From: Hormiphora californensis
Lineage: Eukaryota > Animalia > Ctenophora
DNA length: 64,000 bases
NCBI GenBank assembly: GCA_020137815.1
Contig: CM035351.1
Span: 124,001 to 188,000 of the forward strand
Reading direction: 5' to 3'
Each line of letters starts with the position of its first letter. Position 1 is the stretch's first letter. The notes under the pieces are model-generated. The model was not told the DNA's origin. It was given only the letters and a program-made list of their open reading frames with translations, and searched no databases. The position numbers were made by a program, and so were the translations under genes. Positions 8,304-54,613 of the stretch are shown piece by piece.

Positions 8304-8323
8304 GGACCTTTCTTCTCCTACAG

Positions 8324-29670: not shown

Positions 29671-31080
29671 ATGGGCACCATGGGCCTTTCCGAGAATGCC
29701 CAGCTAGAAGCAGAAAAAGCTGTGTTTGAGAACATCAAGGCGTTTGTCAAAGAATCTGGGTTAACGACAGACAGTTTCTTTTCGGACACCCTTGCTTTTG
29801 CTAAAATAAAGATAACTGCGGCAGATGGGACCCACCTCAAAACATTTGATCTGACGGAGCTGCTACTTGCCGATGGTGTGGCACAGATACATTTTGAGGA
29901 TACTGATAGGGACATCAACTTACTGATGAATATCGGAAGCAGCGAAATTAGGGACCACATCCTGGATGGTGATACACATCAACTGTGGAAGGATAACATT
30001 GAGCAAAACATGTTGATTGACATGTACAACGCTTCATACTCGATGTCATTTGTGTGGACCGATGGTACAGAGTCCTTTCGTCAAAACGACAAGATGATCC
30101 TGCGAACGTCGGTGCTCATCATTTGTGCCCTTGTATTGGGGTTTCTTTCCATCAGAGATTTGTGGAAGCATTATAGGAAGACCCCCGGTAAGTTACTGAG
30201 GTATGTGAGATGTTTTCGAGAAGGATGGCTGGTGTCAATAGCTTTCCTCAGCTTCATATCTCATGTCGGTAACTTGCTTCCCTCACTCGGGAAGTCCTTC
30301 TCGTGGCTTAAAAAGGTCACACGGACGATCGATTTTATCACCTTCTACGAGGGAGCATCACTCAAGTTTTTTACCTGTTGCATCTACATTTTCCAGACTG
30401 TGATGGTAGTGTTTCCATTCTACTTTCGATCCAACAAGTCTAAGCTATTGTTGACAATGGCCAACACGATGACTGGAGTTGCGGTTACCTTGGTTACCAT
30501 ACCTCTGCCAGTTATAGTGGGATACATTAAGATCACGAGGGTATCCAGTTGCAATGATGTCGCTAACCTTAGCCAGCACGTTCAAGTAACGAACGCCATT
30601 CTATTTGCAATATTTGTCGTTGGTGCCTCTGTAACAAGTATGGCATATATGCTGATGTACTGGCTTTCCAATAGGAAGGAGGGCGATGAGGTGCAGGTTG
30701 CTAGGCAACAGAATGCAGAAAACACTGAGGAGACGCTTCTAAAGACGATCGTGGAAGCAGTGACAAACATCGTTCTGATATACTACACAGTGCAACATCA
30801 TCTTGACATCGCAACATTCCACAAGCAACGATCCAAGGTGACTGACTGTATATCTGTCGATCCAGTGTTTTCTACCGTGGCCACCCAACCGGCTAGCTTT
30901 GATGCTCTCTTGGCTCAGCAGGGAGTCACTGCTATTATTTGCTCGATAGTGCCTCGTATTCGCAAGTTACTCAAGAAGTTTTGGGTCAGAGGTATGGTTA
31001 CAGGAGACAAAGGTGACGAGGGATCAGGTGATGGCATATCAGTTCAACAGAGTTCAGATACTACCCCGCCGAACAATTAA
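29671..31080 (+). CDS. Intronless 469-aa multi-pass membrane protein, probably a divergent 7TM/GPCR-like receptor
   Basis: Long ATG-initiated ORF; ~140-aa hydrophilic N-terminus followed by about seven hydrophobic segments; TM3-end QTVMVVFPF in place of DRY. Confidence 0.72.
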   Translation: MGTMGLSENAQLEAEKAVFENIKAFVKESGLTTDSFFSDTLAFAKIKITAADGTHLKTFDLTELLLADGVAQIHFEDTDRDINLLMNIGSSEIRDHILDGDTHQLWKDNIEQNMLIDMYNASYSMSFVWTDGTESFRQNDKMILRTSVLIICALVLGFLSIRDLWKHYRKTPGKLLRYVRCFREGWLVSIAFLSFISHVGNLLPSLGKSFSWLKKVTRTIDFITFYEGASLKFFTCCIYIFQTVMVVFPFYFRSNKSKLLLTMANTMTGVAVTLVTIPLPVIVGYIKITRVSSCNDVANLSQHVQVTNAILFAIFVVGASVTSMAYMLMYWLSNRKEGDEVQVARQQNAENTEETLLKTIVEAVTNIVLIYYTVQHHLDIATFHKQRSKVTDCISVDPVFSTVATQPASFDALLAQQGVTAIICSIVPRIRKLLKKFWVRGMVTGDKGDEGSGDGISVQQSSDTTPPNN

Positions 31081-31494: not shown

Positions 31495-32852
<1,358 letters not shown>

Positions 32853-37265: not shown

Positions 37266-37969
37266 AAAAGGGCCTATAAAAACCAAGATTGAGGGGGTCG
37301 CACCAGGTGTCTATATGTCACCAAAAGGAAAAGGGCCTATAAAAAACTTGATCCTCCGCGGATCTGTCAGGCCAATGCTCTGACCACAGTTCTCGCGGGC
37401 CAATGCTCTGACAGCCGCGGATGACCTTTAGACCTTTGTCATGGATCTGTCAGAGCATAGGCCTGACGGCTGACCCTATTCGAGAACTGTGGTCAGAGCA
37501 TAGGCCTGACGGCTGACCCTATTCGAGAACTGTGGTCAGAGCATTGGCCTGACAATTAGGATAAATTGGTCATGGTCTGTAGTTCGTAGTCGTAGAGAGC
37601 AAGGAAAGATTGAATAATAATAATATTAACTGTCCAGAGCTGCGCAGAGCTGCGCAGAGCTGTGTTTTGCTCTAGATTCTTCTATCTACTATAGACTAGA
37701 TCATAGATTGTCTTGTCTAATCGATAGGGCATTAACACAGAATCACCGAGATAGATGGAGGGTTAATATCTTTTCTAGCTTAGCAGGATCTCTACGCTAC
37801 GAACTGCAGTACATACCGTGACAAGTTAGCGAAGCTAATGTTGTTAACAACAATAGCTTCGCTAACTGGTCACGGTATGTACTGCAGTTCGTAGAGAAAG
37901 GTGTATGGATAACAATGTTATCAATCCACTTTCTCTCCCTCTCCTAGCTCCTGTCTCCTGGGGTTATAA

Positions 37970-39397
37970 TGTAGGACTGGGTGTGACCCCGAGAGAGTGC
38001 AGACTCGCAGTGAGAATGCCCATCTCTGTGTAGCCTGGGTAGGACTGTAAAAACCCCAGGGTGGCTAGGTTGTGTGGCCACTGCTACACTCCTACCGGAC
38101 TACCTATAGTCCGTACTCCAAAAGCTCCCGTATCCTTAGGATTTAGCATTTGTATACACATAATATGGGCCAAGGCATGCACTGCGAATGACCCAATGGA
38201 GACCACTATGCAATGTTTCCGAAAGCCAGCCCCCATTCCGTACCGTTTCCAACGCGATGGCGAGCACGGTGTTTCCCATAGAAAACACCGAGCTCTAAAA
38301 CATAACTCATGTATTTGAGGGGCGTGAATCCCTTGCCTGCACGCAAACCAATGATAAAAACATAAAGCCCATGAATACACGTATTTCAGCCTGTAAATAT
38401 AATACTCTCGCACTCTCTTCTACATCACTCTCTCACTCGCTCCTCTACATCACTCTCTCACTCTCTTATCTACATCACTCTCTCATTCTCTTATCTACAT
38501 CACTCTCTCACTCACTCACTTCTCTACATCACTCTCTCACTCACTCCTCGATCTCACTCTCTCCTGGCCCCTATACCACTGCATAACGCCTCCTTAGTTA
38601 GCCCAACAAGCCCAAGCCCGAATCACAAGCAAACTGAGTCAACCCGATCAGGTGGCGGTCTAATGACTGAGAGACCATTGCACAATGTAGCCTGTCGGGG
38701 AAGACCCTCCGACACATATGGAGACCATGTTGAGCCCGTCAGATGACCATGGCCTGATAGCCAAGCAACTCTCCGACCTGAGCAAGTCCCAAGCAGAAGT
38801 GAGGATTTCACCCCTCGCTTCCGAGTTTTGTTACGTGCGCCTGAAGGCGGGGAATCACCCCTAATCACGTGCTAACTGCCCCGTCCCCGATTGGCCAATT
38901 ACCGCGTGTGCCGTAGGGGAATAAGCAAAGGAGGGGAATTACGCATTGTCCTAACGCAGGTCACGTGACCCGAGCCTCTCGCGGAACCAACTTGCTAACA
39001 GCCGATGAGTCGCCCGAAAAAACCTAATTACGATTATGCCCGCTAAAGGATTATTGTCCGCACCTAGTTAGCAAGAAACTTATCATGTAGCCCACGGAGT
39101 GATGGCACCCCTGGTACAGCTAATGGTTTTCCCGGGAATTTCTCCCTGAAGCCCGCTTCTAATGGCCCAAGGCCCCTCTCCCCAACTCTGACTCGTCTCT
39201 CTCTCTGTCTCTCTCTTTGCACTTTATCCTCAAAATAACTCAAAAAATAGTAACTCCATTACGGCCCTCTGTATCACACTCTCTTCCCATTAATATCGTG
39301 AAATAAAATATTAATAAAAAACACACCAAATATATATAACACACTAAACATATATAAGTATGTTTGCCCGGCCTAAATGTAGGTTTACCGCCCTACA
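37970..39397 (-). repeat. 3' LTR (1428 bp)
   Basis: TGTAGG...CCTACA; direct repeat of 52215-53642, with identical ORF-track translations. Confidence 0.97.
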
Positions 39398-39412
39398 TAC
39401 CCACCCCCCCTG
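39398..39412 (-). other. Polypurine tract
   Basis: Minus strand AGGGGGGGTGGGTA immediately before the 3' LTR. Confidence 0.8.
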
Positions 39413-39465
39413 ACAAAATGGAGTTTTTATTTTTTCTCCACACTTACAGCATAAGCCCTTTGTCC

Positions 39466-41766
39466 CTATTTGTCCGTGGCTGCACTTATGGCTGGTGGCG
39501 TCTTACTCAACCGAGGATATAAGGAGGCCGTAAAAGGGATCACTGGTGCCGATGCTGGTGTGCCCGTTTTGACAGCCTGAGAGCCCCCTTTTAGCCCCGA
39601 GTCCCCTTTCCCCAATGTGAACGCTTTCCCGAATGCCCGAACCCCAGTTGTCCGAACCGGTGCCGTGTCCCCCTCCGGAAGCCCCTGCCGCTCCTCCTGG
39701 CCGGCCTCCACAGGCCCGGAAATCTGCAGCGTCCTCCATCCGCGTAGTTCCGCCTTGTATCTTCCCACCCGCGCATTCCAATGACTACATGCTATGAGGC
39801 CGAATGATATGACATTCAATGCTATCCCGATCAGGCTGACTATATCCAGCCATCCCCACTCTCCTCCTTCCTCCCGAACCATCCGAACTGCCCAGGCCAG
39901 ATCCTCTTGGGTTTGTTCCTGTTCCGTCAGCTGCTTAGCCAGTCTGGTGACATTGCCTGTGTCCAATACCCTCGAGGTTGCCTGCAGATGCTCCTCCCAA
40001 GCCTTGACGTCGGGTAGCTGTAGCTCCTGGTGCAGTGCTACCTCTCTGCTAGACGCCATCATCCTGTGATTAATCATCAAATATGAATAATCAAGCCATG
40101 AATAGAAGCCCGTCCGATTGCTTTCGATTTCCTGGAACGTAAGTCCGCCCTGGTTCCCCGCCTGGATGCCCCTAACCGGTGTTTCACTGAAGACGAGGGC
40201 TCCGGCTACTGTGAAGACTGTGCGGTCCTCACATACGGCCAATTTAGATTTACACTCTCTTCTCCCGTTGAGGCACATTGCCGGAACGTGTTCTTCTACA
40301 GCATTGCCGTGAGTTGGTCTAAGACAAATCTTTAATAATGCGTCCCTGTCGTAACACCCGTCGCCTGGTCTGACCTCATAAAATCGGTCCCCGATGCGAT
40401 ATACTTCATCGGCCATTTCAAAAAGTAGACAGGTGTGGTTAACCTTGATGCCCACTTGTGCCACCGAATACCTCGGATACACGCTGCCCGGCTGTAACAG
40501 AGGAACTGTCATCACAAAGTGGAACTTCCAGCTGAAATCATTTCTCTGCATGCCCATCAGCGTCATTTTGCCCAAAGTATAAATGGTTTCGGGCTGCCCG
40601 ATAAAAATTGAGCCCTGGAAAACCGGATTTTCCTGCACCAACCTCTCCAAGCTTGCCAATTTTAGGAGTTCCGGCAGAACCCCTATGGTTAACTCGTTGG
40701 CCAAGACCCCCGATAGTATGGTACGTGTATGTCGTTCCCATTGTCCAATCTTCCTCTCCAGTGCAGGCTGGTATGATAGCCAGCTCACATCACAAGCCAT
40801 TGCCTTTAACTCCCCTTCGAACCCCTGGAACAGTTCAATCACATCCCTGTTGAATTTTAGCTGGTGTTCAAACTGCCGTTGTGCTGTGTTCGCAAACTCT
40901 GCAAACTGTCCCCTCAGCTCGCGCAGGTGTTTCCTCATCCGTATTCCCTCCCATAATGTAGCTCCTAGCCCCACCACTGGAAGTGCCATGCCCACCGCCA
41001 ACAAGCTACGTTTCTCGTGCCCGGTGCTGCCCTGTTCCTCGCCCCCTAATTGGTACGCCTTTTTTAACGTATCAAAGTTATTCAGAGACGTCTGCCATAA
41101 GGCCTCCTGATCCGCCTCTGTCCGCTCCCTAAAACCTGCCGCCAGGTCCGGCTCATCGTAGTGCTCGCGGCATCGGTCCTCGACCACTGTCCATTTCTTG
41201 AGATTCAAAGTCTGCCATGTTGCCCACTGTCGTCCTTGTAGGTTTGCGTTGTCCAGGATATCCCTGTCTTCTTGCTTGCTTTCGCGATAATCTTTGAAGT
41301 TAACTCGACACTGTCCCTCCGATTCCCGGAATGCACAGTTTTCGCCCTTCATCCGAATGCACCATTGTATGCACTTGGTCCAATTGTCCGTTAGTTCATC
41401 GTTCTGGAGCCCGTTTAGTTTAATCAACAACGCCGTAGTGCCGAACCGCTGTCTGTCCTTCTCCTGCATCTTTTCTACCCACTCCTCATCTATCCTGCAT
41501 TTTTGCCACCAGCTGACCCTACACAAACCCACTGTTGGCCAAGTTGGAATCGGTAAGTCGATAAAAAGAGAAGCGAAGATACTGTCCCCACCGCTGCCCA
41601 GGAAACCCACGGGCTGCAAGGCGACCCCCAAGTCTGTCATAACGAGTGGCTCCGTTGAGAGCTCAAGTTGTCTGTGATCCATGCCTGCTGCGCCCACCTG
41701 CCTGCCCGCCAACCCACTCAGCACTGCCACATAAACACATACAACCGACGCTACTGATGCTGCCAT
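39466..41766 (-). CDS. env: Envelope glycoprotein, class I fusion (F-type) architecture, 766 aa
   Basis: Signal peptide; HEKR followed by hydrophobic fusion peptide SLLAVGMALPVVGLGATLW; heptad repeats; Cys-rich region; N-glycosylation sequons; TM WLDIVSLIGIALNVISFGLIA; located between pol and the 3' LTR. Confidence 0.88.
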   Translation of the reverse strand: MAASVASVVCVYVAVLSGLAGRQVGAAGMDHRQLELSTEPLVMTDLGVALQPVGFLGSGGDSIFASLFIDLPIPTWPTVGLCRVSWWQKCRIDEEWVEKMQEKDRQRFGTTALLIKLNGLQNDELTDNWTKCIQWCIRMKGENCAFRESEGQCRVNFKDYRESKQEDRDILDNANLQGRQWATWQTLNLKKWTVVEDRCREHYDEPDLAAGFRERTEADQEALWQTSLNNFDTLKKAYQLGGEEQGSTGHEKRSLLAVGMALPVVGLGATLWEGIRMRKHLRELRGQFAEFANTAQRQFEHQLKFNRDVIELFQGFEGELKAMACDVSWLSYQPALERKIGQWERHTRTILSGVLANELTIGVLPELLKLASLERLVQENPVFQGSIFIGQPETIYTLGKMTLMGMQRNDFSWKFHFVMTVPLLQPGSVYPRYSVAQVGIKVNHTCLLFEMADEVYRIGDRFYEVRPGDGCYDRDALLKICLRPTHGNAVEEHVPAMCLNGRRECKSKLAVCEDRTVFTVAGALVFSETPVRGIQAGNQGGLTFQEIESNRTGFYSWLDYSYLMINHRMMASSREVALHQELQLPDVKAWEEHLQATSRVLDTGNVTRLAKQLTEQEQTQEDLAWAVRMVREEGGEWGWLDIVSLIGIALNVISFGLIACSHWNARVGRYKAELRGWRTLQISGPVEAGQEERQGLPEGDTAPVRTTGVRAFGKAFTLGKGDSGLKGGSQAVKTGTPASAPVIPFTASLYPRLSKTPPAISAATDK

Positions 41767-42805
41767 AAAACGTACTTTTTCTGCTAAAACGAGGCGTGGT
41801 TAGAATTATTTCAATAATCTTCGGCTCTGGCACACATTTTGGATTATATTACTCTCACATATTTTGTCAAAAACTTATCTCTCCGATATGCGCTTCTAAG
41901 TTTTTATAGACGGGATGGGCACATACCGTCGTCTCACCCCCCCCTTGAAAAGACGCCTTTGCAGAAAAATGACGTTTCTGTAACCGCTCCCAATACGCAT
42001 TTTCGTTTAACCTTTCCCATACCTCCATAACCACACCCCAGGTGCCTGCGCCACCTTGTTTACGTCTCCCCCTGATTATATTTCCACCGTCCGTTTCTAT
42101 GAACATTCCTCCCATTTATCTACAGTACAATATCAATATTTGTATAATTTTAGGCACCTATGCATATTTACGGCTCCCCCGCCGTCCCCCGGTCGACCGC
42201 CGTGCCCCCGTTTAAGGTCTACATCCATCAGCTTTGAATTCATCTCCCACCGTCCGTAATTTAATATGAATGAGGTCGGGCGCTACTCCGATCCCCCTCT
42301 AATGCGTTTTCTGGCCGTCCCAACCCTGGCCTATCCCAATAATTCCCACCACATGCTTAGCTACCAACCGACCAATCCAGCCAACTAGCCAGCATGCCCC
42401 AATTTTCGCGCACGGCATTATTGATGTGTCGGGATTTGACACACCCCCACCGATAGGTTGGTCATACCCACGTTTTACCTTTTCCTGGTACCCCGTTTTA
42501 ATAACCAACCTATAGGGGTGGATAACTAACCTACAATAGTTCAGCACGTTTTGTCCGCGATGCGCTGATTACATCCATGGACAAAACTCTAAAGAGGATT
42601 AGAAACCCGATCGCATATATGCTAGTTTCCCAAATTTCTTGGGAGAGGTGATAAACCTTCTGTGTGCCAGGACCCAAAATAGCACTACAGTCGAAAACGC
42701 ATTAACAAAGCTGATATAGGTGAAAACAGGAATATGCATATATGTATGATATGTATAATTGTACAAGTTGAGATAAAATTCCACACACGAATGATAAATA
42801 CACAT

Positions 42806-45800
42806 TCAATTGACCGAGTACTGATATCTCACGGGTTTTTTAATAACACGTTTAGAGCGTCTTAATAAACCATCCCTATGAATCCCCACCTGTCCCGGTC
42901 CCAAGTCTGATCCGTCATCTGTTTTCATGTCGGCCCTCCAAGACTTGCTATCCTGTTCCCGTCGTTTGCTTGATTTTTTAATCTTCTCCCCCTTGTTTTG
43001 TCTTCCCATCACCCACACGGGTCTGTTCGACTCGTGTTGTCTACCTGTAAGTCTCCAACCTGGTTCTTGCCAGGATCGGCCAATTATTGGCTTAGTGACT
43101 TCCCCCCGGTCATGTAAGCCTTCCCTATACCCCGTGTTTCTCAGTGTCAGTGGTGGTTCGTCATGTGGTGTCGTTAGATGTTCGCTGGTTGATGTTCCCA
43201 GTGGTGCGGTTCCCCCTTCGCCTATAGTGACCTTCCTTCCGAGTGGTTCCTTTGTGTCTTCTCCCTCAGAGCTATCCTCCTCCTCTGACGAGCTGTCACT
43301 AAAAGGTTCATCCTCTGTAGGATGTCCTGCTCTGTCAGTATGGAGGAGTGAGCTCCCCGGGTTAGAGTCCTTAGTTTTACGCAAATTTACACCAGGCTTC
43401 ACCTTACGTAGTGCATCAAAATGAACTACCTCGTGTTTGCCCGTCTCTGCATCTTCCACGATGTAATTTTGTTCATTTATACATTTTGTGATTACCAAGG
43501 GACCTTTATACGTGTTTCTGAACTTTCGGTAATCCCTTATTTTTGCCGGCAAGGGCTTATACAACAGAACGTGGTCACCCACGCTATACGTAGTAAAGTT
43601 TACATTTTTATCGTAAGCCCGTTTTTGTAATTTCATTGCATGCCCCGTAGTGGCACGCACCAAATCAAAGACCTCCCTGAATTTATAATAGACCGCTGAT
43701 TTATACTGCTCTTTGTTTTCATAGAACTGAGACTGAGTGGTATCGAAGATAGCATCAGCCGCAGTTCTCACCGTGTAAGAAAACATTAGATCGTTGGCCG
43801 AATACTTAGTTGTGGAGCTTACCGCGTTGTTAAGAGCAAAGACAGCTACCGGTAATTTCTCCACCCATGTATCGGGTTTTTCCCCTACCAATTTTTTAAG
43901 AACCGCCACAACGTCTCTATGACGTCTTTCCACCTGCCCGTTGCCCTGTGGGTGATACGCCGTTGTACGCACCTTATTAATTTGTAAAACTTTATAAATT
44001 TCCTGTATGACCTTAGAGCTGTGCAAATTTGACGCTTGATCCGACAGCACGGTTTCCGGTACTCCAAAAATGAAGCACCATTTTTCCATGAATGCTCTAG
44101 CTATATTTTTGCTGGTGGCCTCTACCAAAGGACTCGCCATGAAGTATTTGGTGAATCGATCAATCATAGTAAGAATGTATTTAGGAATGCCCGGGGCCGG
44201 TGTAAACGGCCCTACTATGTCAATAGCTACACATGCGTTTGGTCTACCGACCTGAAACTGTTTAAGCGGTGCTCTCGGTTTTTTGAAGTATGCTTGGTTA
44301 TTCAGAAAGCACGCTTTACAGCACTGGCAATAATGCTCTATTTCTTTGTGCATGTTTGGCCAGTAGTAAGATTTGAGTACGTTATCTGTCGTACTCTTGC
44401 TGCCCATGTGCCCTGCGGTTGCGTTACTATGATAAGCCTTCAAGATCTCGTCGCGTTGCTCTTCCGGGACACAGATCAAGAGCCCAAATTTCTTAGATTT
44501 TGGCGTGTAACGTTTGTAACAGATCACATCGTTCTGGTTAATTATCAAGGATTCAAATTTGTTCCAATATTTTCGCAACTTAATGGTGAACGCCTTAGCC
44601 CATCTTCTGAGAGGTTTTTCTCCTTCTACCAGCCATTTCCGGACTTCCGTCAGCACGGTGTCCCCTAATTGTGATGCCCTCCATTTACCTGCCCTATCTG
44701 ATACCGAAGCCGTGGGATTATCCCAGGACCCAATGGGGTCCTTTTTTTTAATTTTTACCGCGGCGACGGCCGTCTCTTTTAAATCGGTGGCCTGAGAATT
44801 ACTGATATACCAGTCGTATAGCACGGACGAATGGGTGGGAGCCCGTACGTCTCTACTTAATAGGTCAGGGAGTTGCATCTGAACTCCGCTTTTGTGGACC
44901 AGTTCAAAATCATAGTCCGCCAGGGCTATTATCCACCTCAACATAACTGCCGAGGTAGTTTTTCTCAAGAATTTGTCCCCGGTGATCGCCTCCATGTCGA
45001 TCACAGCCTTAAATTCGGCGTTGATGAGGTAAAAGCGCCACTTCTCTATGAAGTATTTCAGGGCCAGGAACTCCCTTTTGAAACTTGGGTACTTTGACTC
45101 TGTTTCTGAAAGCACCTTGCTCCCATAGGCTATAGGCCTAAATTTCCCGTCTATTTCATGCCCTATGACGCCCCCTAAAGCAACCATACTTGCATCCGTG
45201 TACAGCACCATTTTCTTGGTGACGTCCGGAAAGATCATCACCTGCGGGCTACAGAGAGCCTCCTTCAGTTTCTCTACACTGGCCCTAGCTTCCTCCGTCA
45301 TTACGAAGTCTGGCCCTTTCAATGTGTCTGTAAGCCCTTTGGCCAGCAGTGCAAATTTCGGAATATGGGTCCTAAACCAAGAACAGGCCCCTAAAAACCG
45401 TTGCACTTGCTTCCGCGAAGCCGGCATTGCGATGTTCCTAACTGCTTCCGTTTTTTCCCCATCAGTCTCGACGCCGTTGACTGATAGGAACATGCCCAAA
45501 AATTTTATTTTCCTCTGAAAAAGTTGGCACTTCTTTGGATTCAGAGTCATACCCGCTTGGGTCACCCGGGTAAAAACCTCGTCTAAAATGGCACACATTT
45601 CCGTGAAAGTGGAGGCGCTCGCTATTATATCGTCGATGAAGCCAGCCGCCTTGTCCCCTTTCATGCCCTGCAAAATTTTGTCTAACAAGGCCTGATATGT
45701 ACTGGGCGAGCCTTTTAATCCCAAAGGCATCCTAACGAATTCGAAATGCCCGATGCCCGGAATGGTGAACGCCGTTCTATCCCTATGCTCAGGTGCCATT

Positions 45801-47071
45801 CCAATTTGAAAATAACTATCCTTGAAATCCAATGTGCTAAAAAGTTCTTTACCGGCCCAGTTGGCCGTTATCGAGTCTACTGCAGGCACGGCTGCATATG
45901 ACCTTTTAGAATGTTTGTTTAATTCTCGGTAATCGATTAGTAAGCGCCTTTTGCCCCCTCTCTTCATGAGAATTGCTGGGGACGAGAACTCACTAGAGCT
46001 CCGTTGTATAATGCCCGCATCCAAAAGTTCAGCCACTTCCTCTTCACAATCTTTGAAAAGATGGAAAGGCACCCTCCGATATTTGCAACGAATTACGGTA
46101 TCCCGTTCTGCCAGTGGGACGGTGTGCTGTATTAACGTCGTTAGTCCCAGCTGGTCCCTACCGAGGGCGAATACGCCCTCATGTTTACTCACTAGCTGTG
46201 TGGCCAAAAGTTTTTCATCTTCTGATAAGTTTGTGTTCTCGTTGAATTTCAAAGCCTCTAGAATTCCGTCTAGATTGGATTTGTCACCGTCTATCTGGAC
46301 GGTTTGTATTCTGTTTAAAGTTTCAATAACTTCTAAAGCTGTGCCCAGACAGACCTGCGGGGATATCTCCCAGTCTCCCCCTTCCCATTCATTGCGAAAC
46401 GGGAGACTGCAATACCCATTCTTTACTTCCATAGCCCATGAACAATTTGTGTCGCCTCCTATGTCTTCACTAGGGAACAGGGAGAAAACTCCCGTTATGT
46501 TTTCCCTTTCGTTAGCCTCGTTTTGCAAACGAGCCTCAGCCCAAATCATGCCTTCTGCTGGCACACAAATGGACTTTATTAGATGTACGTTTAGCGCCCT
46601 TTTGCCTTTTTTCTTACTCCCCGCTAGAAGAGGAGCCTTAAAATCAGGTCCAGTGACCAAATTTAAGTCAAAGTTTATTGTTGCCCTGGCTTCTCCCAGC
46701 CATTCGGTACCCAGGATCACGTGATCCCTTAGTTCCTTGACTACCAGGAAGTTTGTTACGAAGGGTTTGTCCCCTATTTTAAAAGGAACTTTATTTGCTC
46801 TATACAAAACGGGAAGGGAGATTCCCGAAATCCCCGTTATTAAGACGTGCTCAGCCGCCTTATCCGCTACCTTCTGTCTAAGGAACCACTCCTCACTACA
46901 TAAATTCCTAGCCGCACCACTGTCAACCAGCCCGTGAACTGTCCCATCCCTACCCATGATCCTAACGAACACTTGCCCCCCACATGAATTTATTTCGAGA
47001 AGAGAAACGTCCTTACACTCAGACCACTCCGACTGTCCGATTAACACCTCTCTTCTCTCTATTCGTTTTTT
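42806..47071 (-). CDS. pol: Pol polyprotein (protease-RT-RNase H-integrase), Ty3/Gypsy order, expressed by -1 frameshift from gag
   Basis: LVDSGA protease; LDFKDSYFQ and FIDDII RT; YTDAS RNase H; H-H-C-C and D,D,E integrase (IDIVGP, SDQ, GQVER); KGP motif. Confidence 0.97.
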   Translation of the reverse strand, partial: KKRIERREVLIGQSEWSECKDVSLLEINSCGGQVFVRIMGRDGTVHGLVDSGAARNLCSEEWFLRQKVADKAAEHVLITGISGISLPVLYRANKVPFKIGDKPFVTNFLVVKELRDHVILGTEWLGEARATINFDLNLVTGPDFKAPLLAGSKKKGKRALNVHLIKSICVPAEGMIWAEARLQNEANERENITGVFSLFPSEDIGGDTNCSWAMEVKNGYCSLPFRNEWEGGDWEISPQVCLGTALEVIETLNRIQTVQIDGDKSNLDGILEALKFNENTNLSEDEKLLATQLVSKHEGVFALGRDQLGLTTLIQHTVPLAERDTVIRCKYRRVPFHLFKDCEEEVAELLDAGIIQRSSSEFSSPAILMKRGGKRRLLIDYRELNKHSKRSYAAVPAVDSITANWAGKELFSTLDFKDSYFQIGMAPEHRDRTAFTIPGIGHFEFVRMPLGLKGSPSTYQALLDKILQGMKGDKAAGFIDDIIASASTFTEMCAILDEVFTRVTQAGMTLNPKKCQLFQRKIKFLGMFLSVNGVETDGEKTEAVRNIAMPASRKQVQRFLGACSWFRTHIPKFALLAKGLTDTLKGPDFVMTEEARASVEKLKEALCSPQVMIFPDVTKKMVLYTDASMVALGGVIGHEIDGKFRPIAYGSKVLSETESKYPSFKREFLALKYFIEKWRFYLINAEFKAVIDMEAITGDKFLRKTTSAVMLRWIIALADYDFELVHKSGVQMQLPDLLSRDVRAPTHSSVLYDWYISNSQATDLKETAVAAVKIKKKDPIGSWDNPTASVSDRAGKWRASQLGDTVLTEVRKWLVEGEKPLRRWAKAFTIKLRKYWNKFESLIINQNDVICYKRYTPKSKKFGLLICVPEEQRDEILKAYHSNATAGHMGSKSTTDNVLKSYYWPNMHKEIEHYCQCCKACFLNNQAYFKKPRAPLKQFQVGRPNACVAIDIVGPFTPAPGIPKYILTMIDRFTKYFMASPLVEATSKNIARAFMEKWCFIFGVPETVLSDQASNLHSSKVIQEIYKVLQINKVRTTAYHPQGNGQVERRHRDVVAVLKKLVGEKPDTWVEKLPVAVFALNNAVSSTTKYSANDLMFSYTVRTAADAIFDTTQSQFYENKEQYKSAVYYKFREVFDLVRATTGHAMKLQKRAYDKNVNFTTYSVGDHVLLYKPLPAKIRDYRKFRNTYKGPLVITKCINEQNYIVEDAETGKHEVVHFDALRKVKPGVNLRKTKDSNPGSSLLHTDRAGHPTEDEPFSDSSSEEEDSSEGEDTKEPLGRKVTIGEGGTAPLGTSTSEHLTTPHDEPPLTLRNTGYREGLHDRGEVTKPIIGRSWQEPGWRLTGRQHESNRPVWVMGRQNKGEKIKKSSKRREQDSKSWRADMKTDDGSDLGPGQVGIHRDGLLRRSKRVIKKPVRYQYSVN

Positions 47072-48426
47072 GATTCCCCTGCTTTATTAGCGGTAGGTGT
47101 CGAGCCTTCTTGGAAGGAGACTGCTCGAGGTCTCACATGCCACGGGTTGGGTTGAGCTTCCGCGACCCCACCTTGCTGCTGTCCCTGTCCCATCCAATGG
47201 TTATGCCGTCCTCGTCCCTGCCCGTTTCCGTTGAATCTGCCTCCCCGTGAAGGACTGTAGCCCTGTTGCCGATTGGGGTTGTATGAGCTGAACTGTGGGT
47301 TTGGGCCACCCGTGCCGCACTGCATGCACCTGTTGCGCCGGGCGAAATTATGAAACCCACATTCCTCGCAGAGCCAGTCCCCCACCTGTAGTTTGGCCTC
47401 GAACCTCCGCCCGTTGTACCCTCTGTTCTGTCCGCCCCACTGCCGAGCCTGCCCCTCCCATGGCCGGTGCTGCCTCTCCCCAGTTTGGCGAGGCCCCTCA
47501 TACTGTGCCTGTAGTGGAGCTCCTCCCTGGTTTGCCCGTGCCTCCCCTTGCCCTGCCGCCAGTACCGTGACCTCATTAAGCCCAGACACGTCGTTCCGTG
47601 CCGTTAAAGCCTTCTCCTTCCGGTCCATGTTTTCCACCAGGTCCGCGAAGGAGTCCCTCTCCAGCTTTTCCGCTATCTCACACGCGATCTTGTCGTCCCT
47701 GGCCCCGATCCATAGCGTGTCCTTCAGGAGCTGCTCCAACTCCGGGCCCTCCACGTCCCCCAGATCCGCTGCCTCCCTAAGTAGCCGATCCCCAAAGTCC
47801 CTAACCGTCTCCTCCAACTGCTGCTTCAGGGCCCGGAACCGTGAAATGGCCACCACTTTCAAATCGGGTGGGGCCAGCACTAAAACTACCCGCTCCAGGT
47901 AGGCCTCCCACGATTTGGCCTCGGACGCCTTCTTGTCCCCCCGTACTTTCAACGAGGACACTTCGTCCAAGTACGTCGGAAATATCTCACGTGCATCCTC
48001 TGTGGATATCTTGGCTGCCCTCCTATAGCCCTCCCATGCGTCCACGAATGCCCGCACGCTTTTGCCCTTCTTGAACGGCTCCGGCTTCCTCGCCAATTGA
48101 TGCCTCTTGGCCCTCCCCGTGCCCCACTCCGTCCCAATACCTCCCCTGGCCCCGACTGCCTCTGTTTTGATCCACTCCTCCTTCTCCTCCCGTAAGCCCT
48201 GTATCATCCTCTTGGCCCCCTCCAAGTCCCGTGCGTACCTTTCCTCATTCTCAGCTATCGCCTTGCCCGCCTGCTTCCTAACCTCCTCCACCTTCTCCAT
48301 GCCCTCCCCCATTCCCCTTGCCCGCGCCCTTTCCTGCTCCCGGAGCACCAGTTGACACAGCTCCTCGCCCTGGCCCTCGTTTAAGTTCAGTCCTTGAACG
48401 AATTCGTTGATAGAGATGCCCTCCAT
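47059..48426 (-). CDS. gag: Gag (coiled coil, capsid-like region, Gly/Arg/Gln-rich NC with RanBP2-type zinc finger)
   Basis: Directly upstream of pol; capsid-like PEPFK..., QQLEETVRDFGDRL major-homology-like motif; likely ATG at 48426. Confidence 0.9.
   Translation of the reverse strand: MEGISINEFVQGLNLNEGQGEELCQLVLREQERARARGMGEGMEKVEEVRKQAGKAIAENEERYARDLEGAKRMIQGLREEKEEWIKTEAVGARGGIGTEWGTGRAKRHQLARKPEPFKKGKSVRAFVDAWEGYRRAAKISTEDAREIFPTYLDEVSSLKVRGDKKASEAKSWEAYLERVVLVLAPPDLKVVAISRFRALKQQLEETVRDFGDRLLREAADLGDVEGPELEQLLKDTLWIGARDDKIACEIAEKLERDSFADLVENMDRKEKALTARNDVSGLNEVTVLAAGQGEARANQGGAPLQAQYEGPRQTGERQHRPWEGQARQWGGQNRGYNGRRFEAKLQVGDWLCEECGFHNFARRNRCMQCGTGGPNPQFSSYNPNRQQGYSPSRGGRFNGNGQGRGRHNHWMGQGQQQGGVAEAQPNPWHVRPRAVSFQEGSTPTANKAGESKNE
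47065..47071 (-). promoter_or_regulatory. -1 ribosomal frameshift slippery heptamer A AAA AAC
   Basis: gag ends ...TCA AAA AAC GAA TAG; the -1 frame is open into pol (RIERREVLIGQ). Confidence 0.85.
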
Positions 48427-48770
48427 GTTGTGTTCACTACAAGGAATAAGAGAAGAGGTTAGCAAACATAATAAACATATATATCTGAGGAGTGGGGTTG
48501 TAAAAGGGAAGAGGGAATCTGTTCTTTCAGGTGGGGGTTCAAGGGAAAAAGGGAGGGGAAATGTAACACTGAAAACACACGATTTTCCTCACTGAAAGTT
48601 AAAACTGATACGTTATAGATACATAAAAAGAAATACATAGAAAGTCCTGGACTCCAATGTTCCGGCCCGCTGATCCGTCAAACTCTGGTCCGGCCCACTG
48701 ATCCGGCTCGTGCTTCCCTTGATGAGTTCCAGTCCACTCCTGAATCGGCCGGCCTCACCTCCATCCCCTT

Positions 48771-49415
48771 CTACTCGGTTCCAAGGCCGCATATGGAGGC
48801 GATATGACCGTACGTTAAACACCGGGAACACTCGATCATTTGTTGAATGCGAGGCGGCTTTACGTTGTAGCGACCGAACGCCTCGTGATCCCGGCTGATG
48901 GTTTCCCGGCTGTCGGCCATTTCACGACGGTGCATACAGCGCACCCATGTGGCGTTTGTTGCCATCCTCCGGCCCTCCCTCCGCATCCTGGCATCCCTCT
49001 CCTCCCGCCTCCTCCGTGCCTCCACCGCCCTCCTCTCCCGTTCCTCCGCCTGAATCCTCTCCCGTGCCGCCGCCCTTGCCCTCATCAACCCCGCCACCTT
49101 GCCCCTCCTCGCCTCCTCCTCCAGCCTCAACGCCGCCAACTCCGCCCCTAACCGCCGATCCTCCGCCATCCAATCCTCCATCCGCCCCTCCTCCTGCCTG
49201 CCCGTCCCCGGCCCCTCCGACACCTGCCCAACCTCCTTCGCCTCCTCCGCCGGCACGCCCACTGCCTCCACCTCCACGCCTTCGTCCACCCCCTCCAGCT
49301 CATCTGCCCAGCTACCAATGTCCTCCTGCCACGTCTTCGTCACCACCACCGCCGCCGTCGCCGCCGCCTTCGCATCCGACACCTCCTCCGCCCGTTGGAT
49401 TTTGCTCGTGTTCAT
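48771..49415 (-). CDS. Accessory ORF-B, 214 aa: acidic N-terminus, Arg/Glu coiled coil, C-terminal CCHC zinc knuckle
   Basis: ATG preceded by a splice acceptor; CSRCLTYGHIASIC fits C-x2-C-x4-H-x4-C. Confidence 0.75.
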   Translation of the reverse strand: MNTSKIQRAEEVSDAKAAATAAVVVTKTWQEDIGSWADELEGVDEGVEVEAVGVPAEEAKEVGQVSEGPGTGRQEEGRMEDWMAEDRRLGAELAALRLEEEARRGKVAGLMRARAAARERIQAEERERRAVEARRRREERDARMRREGRRMATNATWVRCMHRREMADSRETISRDHEAFGRYNVKPPRIQQMIECSRCLTYGHIASICGLGTE

Positions 49416-49555
49416 AATGGTACTATAGAGGGAGAGAGAGAGAATATTAGATCAGCTGAAAGGTTACACGACACGCTAGGGGAAAGAATACATACAAAAA
49501 AAAGGGGGGGGGGGAAAGGGAGTGAGATAAAAACGCTGAGAGAGTATACACAAAT

Positions 49556-49557
<2 letters not shown>

Positions 49558-49592
<35 letters not shown>
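49558..49592 (-). other. Internal poly(A) tract (~35 nt) on the element's sense strand
   Basis: T run on the + strand ~70 nt downstream of the ORF-A stop. Confidence 0.9.
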
Positions 49593-49593
<1 letters not shown>

Positions 49594-49663
49594 ATAAAAG
49601 ATACAAGAGAATAAAAGGAACGATAACAAATATCCCTCAAATACAGCCATTATTTCCTCCCTC

Positions 49664-50242
49664 CTATTCCGGCACGTCCACCCTGGATATTAGGGCCGCC
49701 CGTTTGTACCCAAACCTTATGGCCCACCGTGTCAGCTTTAACAAAGCCCCCTGCCCAAAGTCCACTGCGGCTATGAGTTCTGTGGCCCCCAATTCCCCTC
49801 TCACCCAGTAATGATTGGCCGCCGCCACCCGATGCCTCTTGGAGTCCACCCCACCCCGTGCCCGGCCCATTATCTCCTCCCAGCCCCACGGGTCGCTATA
49901 CCCCTCTATCTCCATAATGGCCTGGCCCACCCTAACATCTATCCAGGCCCCCTTCAAGTCCTCCCAACAAAAATAACATAACCGGGCCCCCATAATGGCC
50001 TCTACCTCCGAATCCCAGATCTCCCTGCACCCCCTACGTGCACACTCTTCCGGCCCTGCCCTAGGTAAGTCCGGCTCCCCCAACGGATACCTCCGGCCCC
50101 CCACCAAGTCGATGACCGGCAGCTCCCCATCCTCCTCCGGCAACACCTCCGACCTCTGCACCTCCCGCGCCTCCACCCGCGCCTCCAGCCGTTCCTGTGC
50201 CCGCACTACTGATATCCGTCGCCGTTTACTGTCTTGTGACAT
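49664..50242 (-). CDS. Accessory ORF-A, 192 aa, unknown function
   Basis: ATG-initiated, same strand as gag/pol, preceded by a splice acceptor; N-terminal KRRR; C-x4-C and C-x2-C pairs. Confidence 0.65.
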   Translation of the reverse strand: MSQDSKRRRISVVRAQERLEARVEAREVQRSEVLPEEDGELPVIDLVGGRRYPLGEPDLPRAGPEECARRGCREIWDSEVEAIMGARLCYFCWEDLKGAWIDVRVGQAIMEIEGYSDPWGWEEIMGRARGGVDSKRHRVAAANHYWVRGELGATELIAAVDFGQGALLKLTRWAIRFGYKRAALISRVDVPE

Positions 50243-52195
50243 AGTGTTGCGCTATATGGGACAGTCGGAGGGTTTAGTGGAATGTCCCACAATTTTTTTA
50301 TAAAACCCGGTGTGAACCCGTGAACCCCATGAAGTACCCGTCTTTACCCATCACAATATAACTAAACTCAATGTAGTGGTGTAACTAAACAGTATGAAGA
50401 TGGTGCAGTGATAAACTGTTTTCCACTATGTTTTTCCAAATCCGGTTTACCTACGCAAAGCCAATCATAACTAAAACAAATGCTTGATAATAGTACGAGG
50501 ACCTCTAACTATAATTTCCAAACTTGTTCGAGCTCGCGCCGTCCCCCTCCCGGAAGTTGTTGCACGCTACTCACCTTTGTAACCCACTACAGCACCATGG
50601 TTGATTTGCTGTCCAGAGTGGGCTACCGCAGCGCCTTTACACAACTGTTCACTGAAACCGCGGTCCAAAGTTTCTTCTCGACAGTATTTCATAACACATA
50701 ATATTAATAATGAACGAATCAATTGATGCCATTGCTACCTCTCTCTGGGCTCCATCTCGGTCGCTGCGCAACCTTGATTTCGCCCGAGTGAGGTAACACA
50801 GTGTGAGCAGACCCATGTGCCATTAAACGCGCATCTTAACCTCGGCCCATACCTCAACCCGCACCCCAGCCCTTAACCTCCGACCCTACCTCCGTCACCC
50901 GCCCTTACCAACGTGCAATTTGGCACAGCAAACTCTAGACTCCGACCTTACGGTCCAAATGTCGAGTTCGCTGAGAGAGAGATTAGCGCTCATGAGTCCG
51001 CACACTATGTAAATAGCACCAAAAACTTCGATAAAACAGAGAGAATATTTAAATACATAGCCCGTTGCCTTCCCATAATAATAACAACCCGCCACATTCC
51101 TTATATAACATCATTCTCCCCCCACACAATTGCTAAATCATTATACATTGCAAGCAATATAAGCCAAATTGTGGCTGCACACCTTACCCTAAACAGTCTG
51201 TCTTTTCCTTTCTAATACGTGCCTAACATAAACCAAATTTCAGTCTTTTACTGTACTACTAAGGAATTTTTAGGGGTGAGTGAATGGGTGTCTTACCATG
51301 CAGCATGACTTCATGGCTGCCTCTGAACCAAGTGGGAAACCTTTGCCCTAGAGTTTTGTGGGGAGGTCTAAACATGTAAAATAAAATGCAAGTAACGAAT
51401 TCAACGGTGAGGGTATTTCTAGTCACTCCCGCAGATGGGGCACCAACATAAGGCAACTGCTGTTTCAAGCTCCTAGACTGCGTAGTTTTGATATTGTTAT
51501 CATGTAAAAATCTCACGTCCCGTCCCCCTGAGTGTATCTCCACCCCCTGAATCCTGATTAACCCATACTCACATACCCCACATATAAAAAGTCAAGTAGT
51601 AACAGAACAGGCCGCCAAGAGAGAAATTATTTCATGATGATGTGAGAACGATGCAAGGATAATGGGGAAACGAAATGAGAATGTCATTATCACTGGGTGG
51701 TGGAAGTATAATTGGAGAAGTGAGAACGAGGTGATAACGATATCAGGATGGTGCTATCACTGTGTGCGTGCACTGAACTGTGAGAACGAGGTGATAATGA
51801 TGTACTACCATTTATCAGGAAGATGTGTAAGTAATGTGAATAGGGTATGAGAGAGATGTGAAAATTTAACAGGGATGTGATGATGATATCAGGAAAATTT
51901 AAGGGGCTTGGCTGCCGTTCTGCTGTTACCCAGACTTGAGAACCTGATACTACAAGCATAAAAAATCATTCCCTGCCCGTAATCATATAAATCAAACTAC
52001 CTAAATGACCAATTAACAAACGCGGGCAGACCTGCAGAGGTAGTAAACGAAAAGCTGATTTTATAGATTGTTCTACTCATAATCTCCACTCAACTCCTGT
52101 GCGCTCTCTCCGAATGAATAATTGGCTCCTCACCAATAACCGGCCCAACTATGCAAGCCCCGTGTATACAAACATGAACTCAGATTCATTAATCT

Positions 52196-52211
52196 GGTTG
52201 TCGTCGGACCA
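52196..52211 (-). other. Primer binding site (tRNA not identified)
   Basis: Minus strand TGGTCCGACGACAACC starts 3 nt after the 5' LTR. Confidence 0.7.
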
Positions 52212-52214
52212 TAA

Positions 52215-53642
52215 TGTAGGACTGGGTGTGACCCCGAGAGAGTGCAGACTCGCAGTGAGAATGCCCATCTCTGTGTAGCCTGGGTAGGACTGTAAAAACC
52301 CCAGGGTGGCTAGGTTGTGTGGCCACTGCTACACTCCTACCGGACTACCTATAGTCCGTACTCCAAAAGCTCCCGTATCCTTAGGATTTAGCATTTGTAT
52401 ACACATAATATGGGCCAAGGCATGCACTGCGAATGACCCAATGGAGACCACTATGCAATGTTTCCGAAAGCCAGCCCCCATTCCGTACCGTTTCCAACGC
52501 GATGGCGAGCACGGTGTTTCCCATAGAAAACACCGAGCTCTAAAACATAACTCATGTATTTGAGGGGCGTGAATCCCTTGCCTGCACGCAAACCAATGAT
52601 AAAAACATAAAGCCCATGAATACACGTATTTCAGCCTGTAAATATAATACTCTCGCACTCTCTTCTACATCACTCTCTCACTCGCTCCTCTACATCACTC
52701 TCTCACTCTCTTATCTACATCACTCTCTCATTCTCTTATCTACATCACTCTCTCACTCACTCACTTCTCTACATCACTCTCTCACTCACTCCTCGATCTC
52801 ACTCTCTCCTGGCCCCTATACCACTGCATAACGCCTCCTTAGTTAGCCCAACAAGCCCAAGCCCGAATCACAAGCAAACTGAGTCAACCCGATCAGGTGG
52901 CGGTCTAATGACTGAGAGACCATTGCACAATGTAGCCTGTCGGGGAAGACCCTCCGACACATATGGAGACCATGTTGAGCCCGTCAGATGACCATGGCCT
53001 GATAGCCAAGCAACTCTCCGACCTGAGCAAGTCCCAAGCAGAAGTGAGGATTTCACCCCTCGCTTCCGAGTTTTGTTACGTGCGCCTGAAGGCGGGGAAT
53101 CACCCCTAATCACGTGCTAACTGCCCCGTCCCCGATTGGCCAATTACCGCGTGTGCCGTAGGGGAATAAGCAAAGGAGGGGAATTACGCATTGTCCTAAC
53201 GCAGGTCACGTGACCCGAGCCTCTCGCGGAACCAACTTGCTAACAGCCGATGAGTCGCCCGAAAAAACCTAATTACGATTATGCCCGCTAAAGGATTATT
53301 GTCCGCACCTAGTTAGCAAGAAACTTATCATGTAGCCCACGGAGTGATGGCACCCCTGGTACAGCTAATGGTTTTCCCGGGAATTTCTCCCTGAAGCCCG
53401 CTTCTAATGGCCCAAGGCCCCTCTCCCCAACTCTGACTCGTCTCTCTCTCTGTCTCTCTCTTTGCACTTTATCCTCAAAATAACTCAAAAAATAGTAACT
53501 CCATTACGGCCCTCTGTATCACACTCTCTTCCCATTAATATCGTGAAATAAAATATTAATAAAAAACACACCAAATATATATAACACACTAAACATATAT
53601 AAGTATGTTTGCCCGGCCTAAATGTAGGTTTACCGCCCTACA
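52215..53642 (-). repeat. 5' LTR (1428 bp)
   Basis: Direct repeat of 37970-39397. Confidence 0.97.
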
Positions 53643-54613
53643 ATAATAGTTATCTCTCTCTACTCTACTCTCTCTCAATATCTGCCTCGGTCTCTCTAAA
53701 GCTAAAAGAACTGGGAGAGAGAGAAACATCTTTCAATTCTTCGTAGTGCCCTTTTATTTGGGATGCTGAATGTGAACTAAACTATAGGTGGGGGACAGTA
53801 CCAATCACCAAACTTTTCTTTTTGCCCATTACCTCTAAGCTCACTTGCCAGTGTGAGGTGTCTTCGATACCAACTATACTTTTCTCTGTCTAACCTTTTC
53901 TTTCTAACTGTCCAGTTGGAGTTTCGGAGCCTGATATCAGCCTGCAGGCATGCGTTCTAGCTGGGAGGATGTAAAAGTTCCATCTCGAAGGCATGCCTGG
54001 TTCAGACTTTTTTAGGAATCGCAACCCTATGGGCTTCATTAGGGGAGCTGATGAGCTGGCTGTGTTGAGCTACTGGCTTGTTTTACGGTTATGTGTTTTG
54101 TTTTCAGTTTTTTTGCAAAAAAAAGAATATTGTAACACCTTCATTTATTAGCGATGTGTGTCAATATGATACGTCTCCTTCTCTTCACAGCTACATTGTG
54201 TGGAACAGCCGTTCTCACCGCTGGTTAGTCAAAAAATTTTTAGCAATTGGCTGTTGCAATTGGGACATTTGGCTGTGTCGCGCCCCTCGATATGGGAACC
54301 TGTATGGCGGCGCCGACCCGATCTGAGGCCCTAAGGAAATTTTTGAGGGTCTGTCGACACAGTAGATAGATGGGAATTGCGTTCAAAGATTAATCATGAA
54401 GTTGCTATATTTCGTTCATTGTCCAAAATGACGTTATATAAGCTCTGGGCTCGGCTGCTTTTTAGGGGGGACGGGTCTAGGGTCGGCTGTCAGGCCAATG
54501 CTCTGACCACAGTTCTCGCGCGCGTGCAGAACAGAGAGAGAAACGAGAATGGGTCAGGCCAATGCTCTGACAGAGGGTCGGAGCCACTGAATTTATCTAA
54601 TATTGCGTTTCAG

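Follow-up and report, generated by a model that had tools for sequence, protein, structure and literature searches.

A stretch of 64,000 nt from the ctenophore Hormiphora californensis (GenBank assembly GCA_020137815.1, contig CM035351.1, positions 124,001–188,000 of the forward strand; the whole stretch is called the window) contains a Ty3/Gypsy element of 15,673 bp on the minus strand at 37970–53642, exactly the coordinates given in an original prediction from the same letters. Two long terminal repeats (LTRs) enclose five open reading frames (ORFs), ORF-A, ORF-B, gag, pol and env, all uninterrupted. The element is most likely a member of the F-type 'ancient errantivirus' group and would work like a complex endogenous retrovirus (ERV). 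Its features, in sense order, are as follows.

53643–53646: target-site duplication (TSD) ATAA, right copy.
52215–53642, minus strand: 5' LTR, 1,428 bp, ends TG...CA.
52200–52211, minus strand: primer-binding site (PBS), starts TGG, 3 nt downstream of the 5' LTR.
50243–52214, minus strand: leader, 1,972 nt, 40 ATGs.
50252–50280, minus strand: predicted 3' splice site of ORF-A; CTAA, 13/18 pyrimidines, AG; 9 nt before the ATG.
49664–50242, minus strand: ORF-A, 192 aa from ATG.
49558–49592, minus strand: 35 encoded A in a row, sense strand (A35), between ORF-A and ORF-B, about 70 nt past the ORF-A stop.
49423–49450, minus strand: predicted 3' splice site of ORF-B; CTAA, 18/18 pyrimidines, AG; 7 nt before the ATG.
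48771–49415, minus strand: ORF-B, 214 aa.
48437–48465, minus strand: predicted 3' splice site of gag; CTAA, 17/18 pyrimidines, AG; 10 nt before the ATG.
47059–48426, minus strand: gag, 455 aa.
46997–47071, minus strand: predicted -1 frameshift signal; A AAA AAC at 47071–47065, 7-nt spacer, long hairpin.
42806–47083, minus strand: pol, 1,425 aa stop to stop.
41767–42805, minus strand: pol-env spacer, 1,039 nt.
41781–41805, minus strand: predicted 3' splice site of env; CTAA, 13/18 pyrimidines, tandem AG; 14–17 nt before the ATG.
39466–41766, minus strand: env, 766 aa.
39398–39411, minus strand: polypurine tract (PPT), G-rich, directly adjoins the 3' LTR.
37970–39397, minus strand: 3' LTR, 1,428 bp, 0 mismatches against the 5' LTR.
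37966–37969: TSD ATAA, left copy.

Internal region of 12.8 kb. The LTRs are 14,245 nt apart and the 5' LTR lies more than 5,000 nt from pol. Every part of the anatomy that had been predicted (identical 1,428-bp LTRs, TSD, PBS, PPT, five open ORFs, leader of about 2 kb, spacer of about 1 kb) is in place, and the exact LTR alignment that had been proposed as a check gives 0 mismatches in 1,428 positions. An LTR length of 1,432 bp was rejected. The four bases behind the 5' LTR (52211–52214) are the same as the TSD (37966–37969), so the exact repeat is 1,432 bp long; these additional bases are TSD, and the TG...CA ends fix the length at 1,428 bp. The 5' LTR includes a tandem array (25 bp x 6.3) at 52649–52808. 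The PBS differs at 3 of 12 positions from the two tRNA-Tyr ends of a published table (PMC13524379). AATAAA and ATTAAA are absent from the sense strand of both LTRs and the nearest AATAAA is at 39431, 34 nt ahead of the 3' LTR, which does not account for 3' end formation in the genomic RNA.

The pol frame has Pfam domains RVP_2 (aa 52–138), RVT_1 (374–531), RT_RNaseH (620–724), Integrase_H2C2 (872–929) and rve (947–1045), with protease motif DSG and integrase motifs HHCC and DDE. The active site of the reverse transcriptase (RT; pol aa 482–485) is FIDD instead of YxDD. The order protease-RT-RNase H-integrase is that of Ty3/Gypsy (Metaviridae), as are LTRs with TG...CA ends accompanied by PBS, PPT and a short TSD. 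The best solved relative is Ty3-G Gag-Pol (E 4e-74), far above foamy-type Pr125Pol (5e-30), the murine leukaemia virus (MLV) enzyme and the RT of human immunodeficiency virus (HIV; about 1e-12), so pol is not of retroviral type (Retroviridae). Metagenome contigs hold only 7 distant pol loci, 24–41% identical; viral contigs gave no relatives of pol, gag or env. None of four proteins looked up in the protein collection has an exact entry (0/4).

Gag gives a weak match to Retrotrans_gag. It carries a RanBP2-type zinc finger at aa 348–372 (E 6e-8), most similar to those of the RNA-binding proteins RBM10, RBM5 and ZNF265 and the only one in the six frames of the element; a CCHC knuckle is absent from Gag. 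The budding motifs PTAP, PPxY and YPxL are likewise absent from it. The hairpin behind the A AAA AAC heptamer has a folding energy of -27.9 kcal/mol (z -4.2), reached by 0 of 200 shuffles. Fingers of the RanBP2 type are known from the Gag of one frog ERV (10.1101/2024.07.05.601823); none in a Gypsy Gag was found among the literature matches listed.

Env has a hydrophobic N-terminus (aa 1–22), KR at 252–253, a hydrophobic stretch at 254–273 and a membrane anchor at 637–663; the three hydrophobic segments occupy the places expected for signal peptide, fusion peptide and anchor. HEKR stands directly ahead of the internal stretch. It is dibasic and falls short of the full furin consensus R-x-K/R-R, and it is kept in the sole homologue found, EukProt protein P0001 of Pleurobrachia bachei, 86% identical over 625 aa. 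The prediction of an early-branching animal host is borne out by this closest relative. The nearest Atlas clusters are Fusion_gly/Baculo_F, at 0.76–0.79 with 177–190 shared features for the top four, and serve as a lead only. From its anatomy and the Atlas lead of 0.79, env is probably F-type. In the cytoplasmic tail (aa 749–753, about 39510–39525, minus strand) LYPRL resembles YPxL; the motif is not conserved in P0001, which has a different end.

Acceptor-like sites precede the start codons of ORF-A, ORF-B, gag and env. The rule applied was YAG, at least 13 pyrimidines in the 18 upstream bases, and the branch motif CTAA at branch-point distance. Among 105 YAG sites in non-coding parts of the internal region, 11 pass the pyrimidine test, 10 the CTAA test and 4 both, and all four lie 7–17 nt ahead of the ATGs of these genes. 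Over the whole internal region (about 420 YAG sites) one further site passes, inside pol; on the opposite strand 0 of 69 pass. All four ATGs are recovered in 16 of 25 variants of the rule, three in 4 and two in 5, with P from 4e-8 to 7e-3, values made optimistic by a rule that was set after the sites had been seen. Expression in the manner of the Drosophila MDG1-group, by an unspliced full-length RNA and a short RNA ending at A35, with internal promoters or internal initiation for the downstream genes and the acceptor-like sites reduced to pyrimidine-rich spacers, would suit several features: elements of that group are not spliced and carry, ahead of gag, two ORFs that are separated by a polyadenylation site (PMC11952523), A35 lies between ORF-A and ORF-B, and an internal promoter drives env in some Oikopleura Tor elements (PMC4402516). 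It is nevertheless judged very unlikely, as it does not account for CTAA, pyrimidine tract and YAG placed with equal spacing ahead of four ATGs and at one other site (pol) among about 420 YAG.

The predicted acceptors could be served in two ways. Cis-splicing is possible because both the LTR repeats and the leader contain consensus-like donors, such as AAG|GTGAGT at 50574. Trans-splicing is equally available, since 56% of long cDNA reads of one ctenophore carry a spliced leader (PMC8527503). The two are not distinguishable from the sequence. In the window neither a tRNA nor a ctenophore leader motif was detected, and no Rfam family reached the gathering score. Upstream of the acceptors of ORF-A and gag, at 322 and 321 nt, lie donor-like sites (50574/50252 and 48758/48437), possibly by chance.

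ORF-A has a basic N-terminal helix (KRRR), a four-Cys motif and a motif RGGxD..R..A..HY. A full HMMER scan recovers four clusters of homologues, 31–42% identical (E 1.6e-20 to 8.5e-6), on ENA and Logan contigs of 0.6–1.6 kb; a word-indexed search gave no match. In a 5-row alignment 11 invariant columns surround RGGxD..R..A..HY (9 in an 8-row alignment), and the four-Cys motif is present in all four rows long enough for it. No match to ORF-A was obtained in Pfam, PHROGs or PDB sequences, and the homologues give weak, scattered Pfam matches only. Further loci were found neither in viral, metagenome or prokaryote contigs, nor in loci L001–L007, nor elsewhere in the window. The best Atlas value, 0.77, is uninformative.

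A related copy, about 90% identical, gives a test of selection from the best 40 of 262 differences by support, of which 27 lie inside ORFs (8 in ORF-A, 17 in gag, 2 in ORF-B). Of the listed ORF-A differences, 8 of at least 14 in that stretch, 5 are silent against an expectation of 0.25 (P 0.026), and third positions account for 6; the gag control has 15 of 17 silent. Disruption of ORF-A in related copies had been named as an outcome that would speak against the prediction; the copy shows mostly silent differences instead. Sequence conservation indicates that ORF-A is a real gene of a conserved family, on the strength of the four homologue clusters together with these differences.

A sense ATG frame of at least 192 aa arises in 11 of 1,000 shuffles of 48427–50400, and shuffling of single ORFs (5,000 shuffles) gives P 0.002 for ORF-A and 0.015 for ORF-B, both optimistic because the stretches had been picked as ORFs. 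Third-position G is 0.55 in ORF-A, 0.63 in ORF-B and 0.47 in gag. Two other frames are not counted as genes: an 89-codon frame in the leader (P 0.22) and, within the spacer between pol and env, an ATG frame of 82 codons (42115–41867, minus strand; P 0.12, no Pfam match). The latter follows a YAG at a distance of 4 nt; this YAG has CTAA upstream but only 9/18 pyrimidines, and the frame is a possible third small gene.

The single-sequence model of ORF-A has a predicted local distance difference test score (pLDDT) of 43. The 8-row model reaches pLDDT 69 and a predicted template modelling score of 0.56. It consists of a long helix at the N-terminus, a Cys region of low prediction quality and a bundle of three helices, which resembles GAT, MIT and designed bundles with Z up to 8.5, below the bar of about 13 for helical bundles; no Foldseek match was obtained at E 0.001. 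Both upstream genes could be real and spliced while ORF-A acts on host proteins, its zinc finger and MIT/GAT-like bundle recruiting the endosomal sorting (ESCRT) machinery for budding or the ubiquitin machinery, or disarming host silencing. The predicted C-terminal bundle does align with GAT, MIT and BAG domains at Z 7.0–7.9, Gag is devoid of PTAP, PPxY and YPxL, and the ORF-A protein has a net charge of -3. This host-directed role is considered unlikely, however: with a top Z of 8.5, 3–14% identity and no Foldseek match the resemblance is generic, and GAT, MIT or BAG folds leave the invariant RGGxD..R..A..HY motif unexplained.

ORF-B has an acidic N-terminal part, an Arg/Glu-rich likely coiled coil and, at 48830, a C-terminal CX2CX4HX4C knuckle, the sole CCHC knuckle in the six frames of the element. 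The zinc fingers are thus swapped, with the CCHC knuckle in ORF-B and the RanBP2-type finger in Gag. Neither this exchange nor the acceptor-like sites ahead of four of the five genes figured in the original prediction. ORF-B as a relative of ORF-A was rejected, the two sequences being unrelated. ORF-B gave no significant family match. Its region is G-rich and of low complexity, and the complementary strand contains long frames as well. The knuckle, the gag-like third-position G and the rarity of comparable open frames in shuffles make it quite probable that ORF-B is a gene. As an accessory gene it stands less firmly than had been predicted: the open frame with its knuckle holds, while no homologue was found among proteins of 117–375 aa and no selection signal was seen.

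A detached part of Gag offers another reading of ORF-B, in which nucleocapsid-type knuckle and coiled coil co-assemble into particles and the RanBP2 finger has replaced the knuckle in Gag. The only CCHC knuckle lies directly upstream of a gag that has none, and G-rich third positions are common to both frames. Against this, the knuckle normally stands behind the capsid whereas ORF-B stands ahead of gag; ORF-B ends at a stop of its own, comes with a 344-nt spacer and has a separate acceptor-like site; and no Gag-like match was obtained in Pfam or PDB. Little probability is therefore given to it. Much the same holds for the possibility that the element picked up ORF-A and ORF-B as cargo from which it gains nothing, A35 being a captured mRNA tail and ORF-B perhaps open by chance in G-rich DNA. 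It draws on the A35 run some 70 nt past the ORF-A stop, on the low complexity, long opposite-strand frames and missing homologues of ORF-B, and on ORF-A homologues known only without genomic context. It is hard to reconcile with a related copy about 90% identical that keeps mostly silent differences in ORF-A, with gag-like codon bias and acceptor-like sites in both ORFs, and with the complete knuckle at the end of ORF-B, and is held to be highly improbable. For the A35 run itself, a templated tail and the scar of a captured mRNA are both conceivable.

The insertion is recent, which is well supported. LTR divergence is below 0.21% at 95% (0/1,428 mismatches), and contigs of DNA runs X1 and X3 connect 37970 to 53653, a site without the element; these runs are one sample, possibly that of the window. 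Contig depths in X1 are 30–38 for the internal region, 64–80 for the LTR and 39.5 for the empty site, and fit one hemizygous copy, contig depth being no copy number. The element had been described as a young, intact, env-bearing Gypsy, and identical LTRs, open frames and Gypsy-order pol agree with this; 'probably active and possibly infectious' is judged overstated. Of 7 sequencing runs listed, 4 contain the stretch (one sample, one study), with no RNA run listed among these. A possible RNA run, X7, has 4 short pieces, 0 of them inside the internal region; neither result is informative on expression.

Related copies are present. The copy about 90% identical occurs in both samples examined. A related family, about 88–90% identical in gag and ORF-A, is deeply covered in runs X1, X3 and X5 (47500–48050, 49670–49830); the same runs show a multi-copy part of the spacer (42200–42840) and a very high-copy bit of the leader (about 50779). 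Run X5, from the other sample, has no cover over env 39670–41571 and the pol core 43474–46009, whereas relatives of gag, ORF-A, ORF-B and the LTR are covered. These gaps hint at absence there or at a deleted relative; no contig joint was seen, and they are not used.

The following mechanism is proposed. One long RNA would be made from the LTR. Four acceptors would release single-gene mRNAs for ORF-A, ORF-B, Gag/Gag-Pol and Env, either by the host spliced leader or by cis-splicing from a donor in the LTR or leader; the two are nearly balanced, with the spliced leader slightly ahead. The full-length RNA would be a poor gag message because gag sits behind a leader with 40 ATGs and two ORFs. Pol would be produced by -1 frameshifting. 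The genome RNA would have to skip four acceptors and then be packaged in trans, Gag would bind RNA through its RanBP2-type finger, and Env would move particles between cells. Candidates for a role like that of Rev or CERV are ORF-A, with its basic helix and Cys4, and ORF-B, with its Arg-rich coil and CCHC; by analogy a function in RNA export is likely for them. The whole chain, with two upstream genes, single-gene 3'-spliced mRNAs and extra proteins that aid nuclear exit and packaging of the unspliced genome, is given an even chance. A more demanding version, that ctenophore 'complex' enveloped retroelements run as spliced-leader operons, with the host leader on four genes including gag, a genome RNA that never serves as gag message, and the Cys4/helical ORF-A family together with ORF-B performing Rev-like export and trans-packaging, is tentative and rather unlikely.

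Several points weigh against the proposed mechanism. Acceptors and transcripts are predictions from sequence, and the acceptor rule, besides postdating the sites, has no calibration on host introns. The export role is drawn from analogy. Both ORF-A and ORF-B proteins have a net charge of -3. The three-helix bundle predicted for ORF-A is a common fold that matched nothing specifically, and its homologues lie on contigs too short to tie them to retroelements. The selection test uses 27 rows among the best 40 of 262 differences, and ORF-A contributes a part of the differences in its stretch. For ORF-B, the 2 listed differences from the related copy both change amino acids, in the same codon, and no homologues were found among proteins of 117–375 aa, longer forms not having been searched. 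Env has no sequence match in Pfam or PDB, and its F-type assignment is drawn from anatomy and the Atlas lead. The empty-site joint may stem from a paralogous flank instead.

In early-branching animals, env-bearing Gypsy elements have so far been known by three core genes only. The present copy suggests what may fill the additional length of ctenophore elements: an orphan gene that is conserved, a protein other than Gag that bears the knuckle, and an acceptor-like site ahead of gag itself. If RNA data agree, the genome RNA would be separate from the gag message, which retroelements normally share. If the mechanism is true, this would be the second Gypsy example, after Cer1, of unspliced genome export in a trans-splicing host. 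On the more demanding version, the logic of complex retroviruses would have an independent origin in an animal lineage that is among the earliest to branch off. The acceptors amount to four base-exact predictions, open to existing long-read cDNA.

Outside the element the window contains homogeneous tandem arrays (96–99% matches) at 1–8304 (43 bp x 193), 13182–15531 (52 bp x 45), 55815–56792 (63 bp x 15.5) and 62649–63997 (26 bp x 52). An intronless frame of 469 aa with several hydrophobic stretches at 29671–31080, plus strand, is likely a multi-pass host membrane protein; it has no Pfam family at cut-off. Leader positions 50922–51005 match 31946–32027 of the window at 75%.

Plant Ogre (PMC6431247) is alike in an internal region of 11–13 kb with one or two extra ORFs and differs in belonging to a plant lineage. 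Planarian Burro/GYPSM1 (PMC6431247) is likewise a large Gypsy with accessory ORFs and F-like env homology; its env, in contrast, is fused inside a polyprotein of 4,873 aa. Extra ORFs are also known in plant (PMC7264820) and rotifer (PMC5408684) elements, and foamy-like fish ERVs reach 17 kb (PMC6431247). In Pfam, neither ORF-A nor ORF-B matches any of the named domains.

Complex retroviruses, such as HIV with its Rev, resemble the element in accessory genes, several acceptors and an unspliced RNA needing export. Walleye dermal sarcoma virus has an upstream orf. An acceptor before gag is not known to be the rule in retroviruses.

Cer1 of C. elegans is a Gypsy with a Cys-containing accessory protein, CERV, made from a spliced mRNA that bears SL1 and required to export the unspliced Cer1 genome (PMC10309623, PMC3315495). 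CERV is built in part from gag exons and occupies the place of env (PMC10309623), whereas ORF-A and ORF-B are separate frames upstream of gag and a membrane glycoprotein takes up the env position here. The gag-pol RNA of Cer1 is neither cis- nor trans-spliced (PMC10309623, PMC3315495), while the present gag has an acceptor-like site and env is separate. Cer1 is taken as the model for a possible role of ORF-A and ORF-B.

The Drosophila MDG1-group (412, mdg1, Stalker, Blood, Tabor; PMC11952523) shares two accessory ORFs upstream of gag and a poly(A)-related feature between sORF1 and sORF2. It differs in having no env, sORFs of about 110 and 70 aa and an unspliced long RNA; the present element has an env-like ORF of 766 aa. 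The sORF2/FAST-like proteins are short and transmembrane and usually start with MG (PMC11952523); ORF-A and ORF-B contain no hydrophobic 19-mer above 1.6 and start with MSQ and MNT.

Closest in kind are the ctenophore elements of Chary and Hayashi (eLife 2026, PMC13524379), nine env-Gypsy elements of which six are F-type. With the F-type 'ancient errantiviruses' the present element shares intact gag, pol and env arranged in that sequence, Ty3/Gypsy affiliation, LTRs and a PBS. The group is further marked by an env ectodomain with the paramyxovirus/baculovirus F fold, a furin site ahead of the fusion peptide, a 'mini' domain behind RNase H and, usually though not necessarily, several near-identical copies. 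None of the four rows with LTRs (0/4) has LTRs of 1,428 bp, and the PBS of the present element is in no row. No mention of accessory genes, zinc or splicing was found in the main text. The pipeline of that study discarded paired LTRs whose distance exceeded 14,000 nt and searched no further than 5,000 nt beyond pol; with LTRs 14,245 nt apart and a 5' LTR more than 5,000 nt from pol, the present element would be listed without LTRs, and it may be, or be kin to, one of the three F-type rows of that kind. Three of the four ctenophore elements with LTR coordinates have internal regions of 11.3–12.2 kb; the present size is therefore no exception, and additional genes may be widespread in ctenophore elements. 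The yardstick of the original prediction, errantiviruses of 7–9 kb with three ORFs, is an insect standard, and the prediction was overstated in this respect. No description of upstream accessory genes or of an acceptor preceding gag in a ctenophore element was found in a literature searched without most subscription journals and Repbase entries. The novelty claimed for the organisation is narrowed in that env-bearing ctenophore Gypsy elements and upstream accessory ORFs (MDG1) are in print. In its core the element is of a described type; its two accessory ORFs, the exchange of zinc fingers and the predicted acceptor ahead of gag set it apart as a new form of that type.

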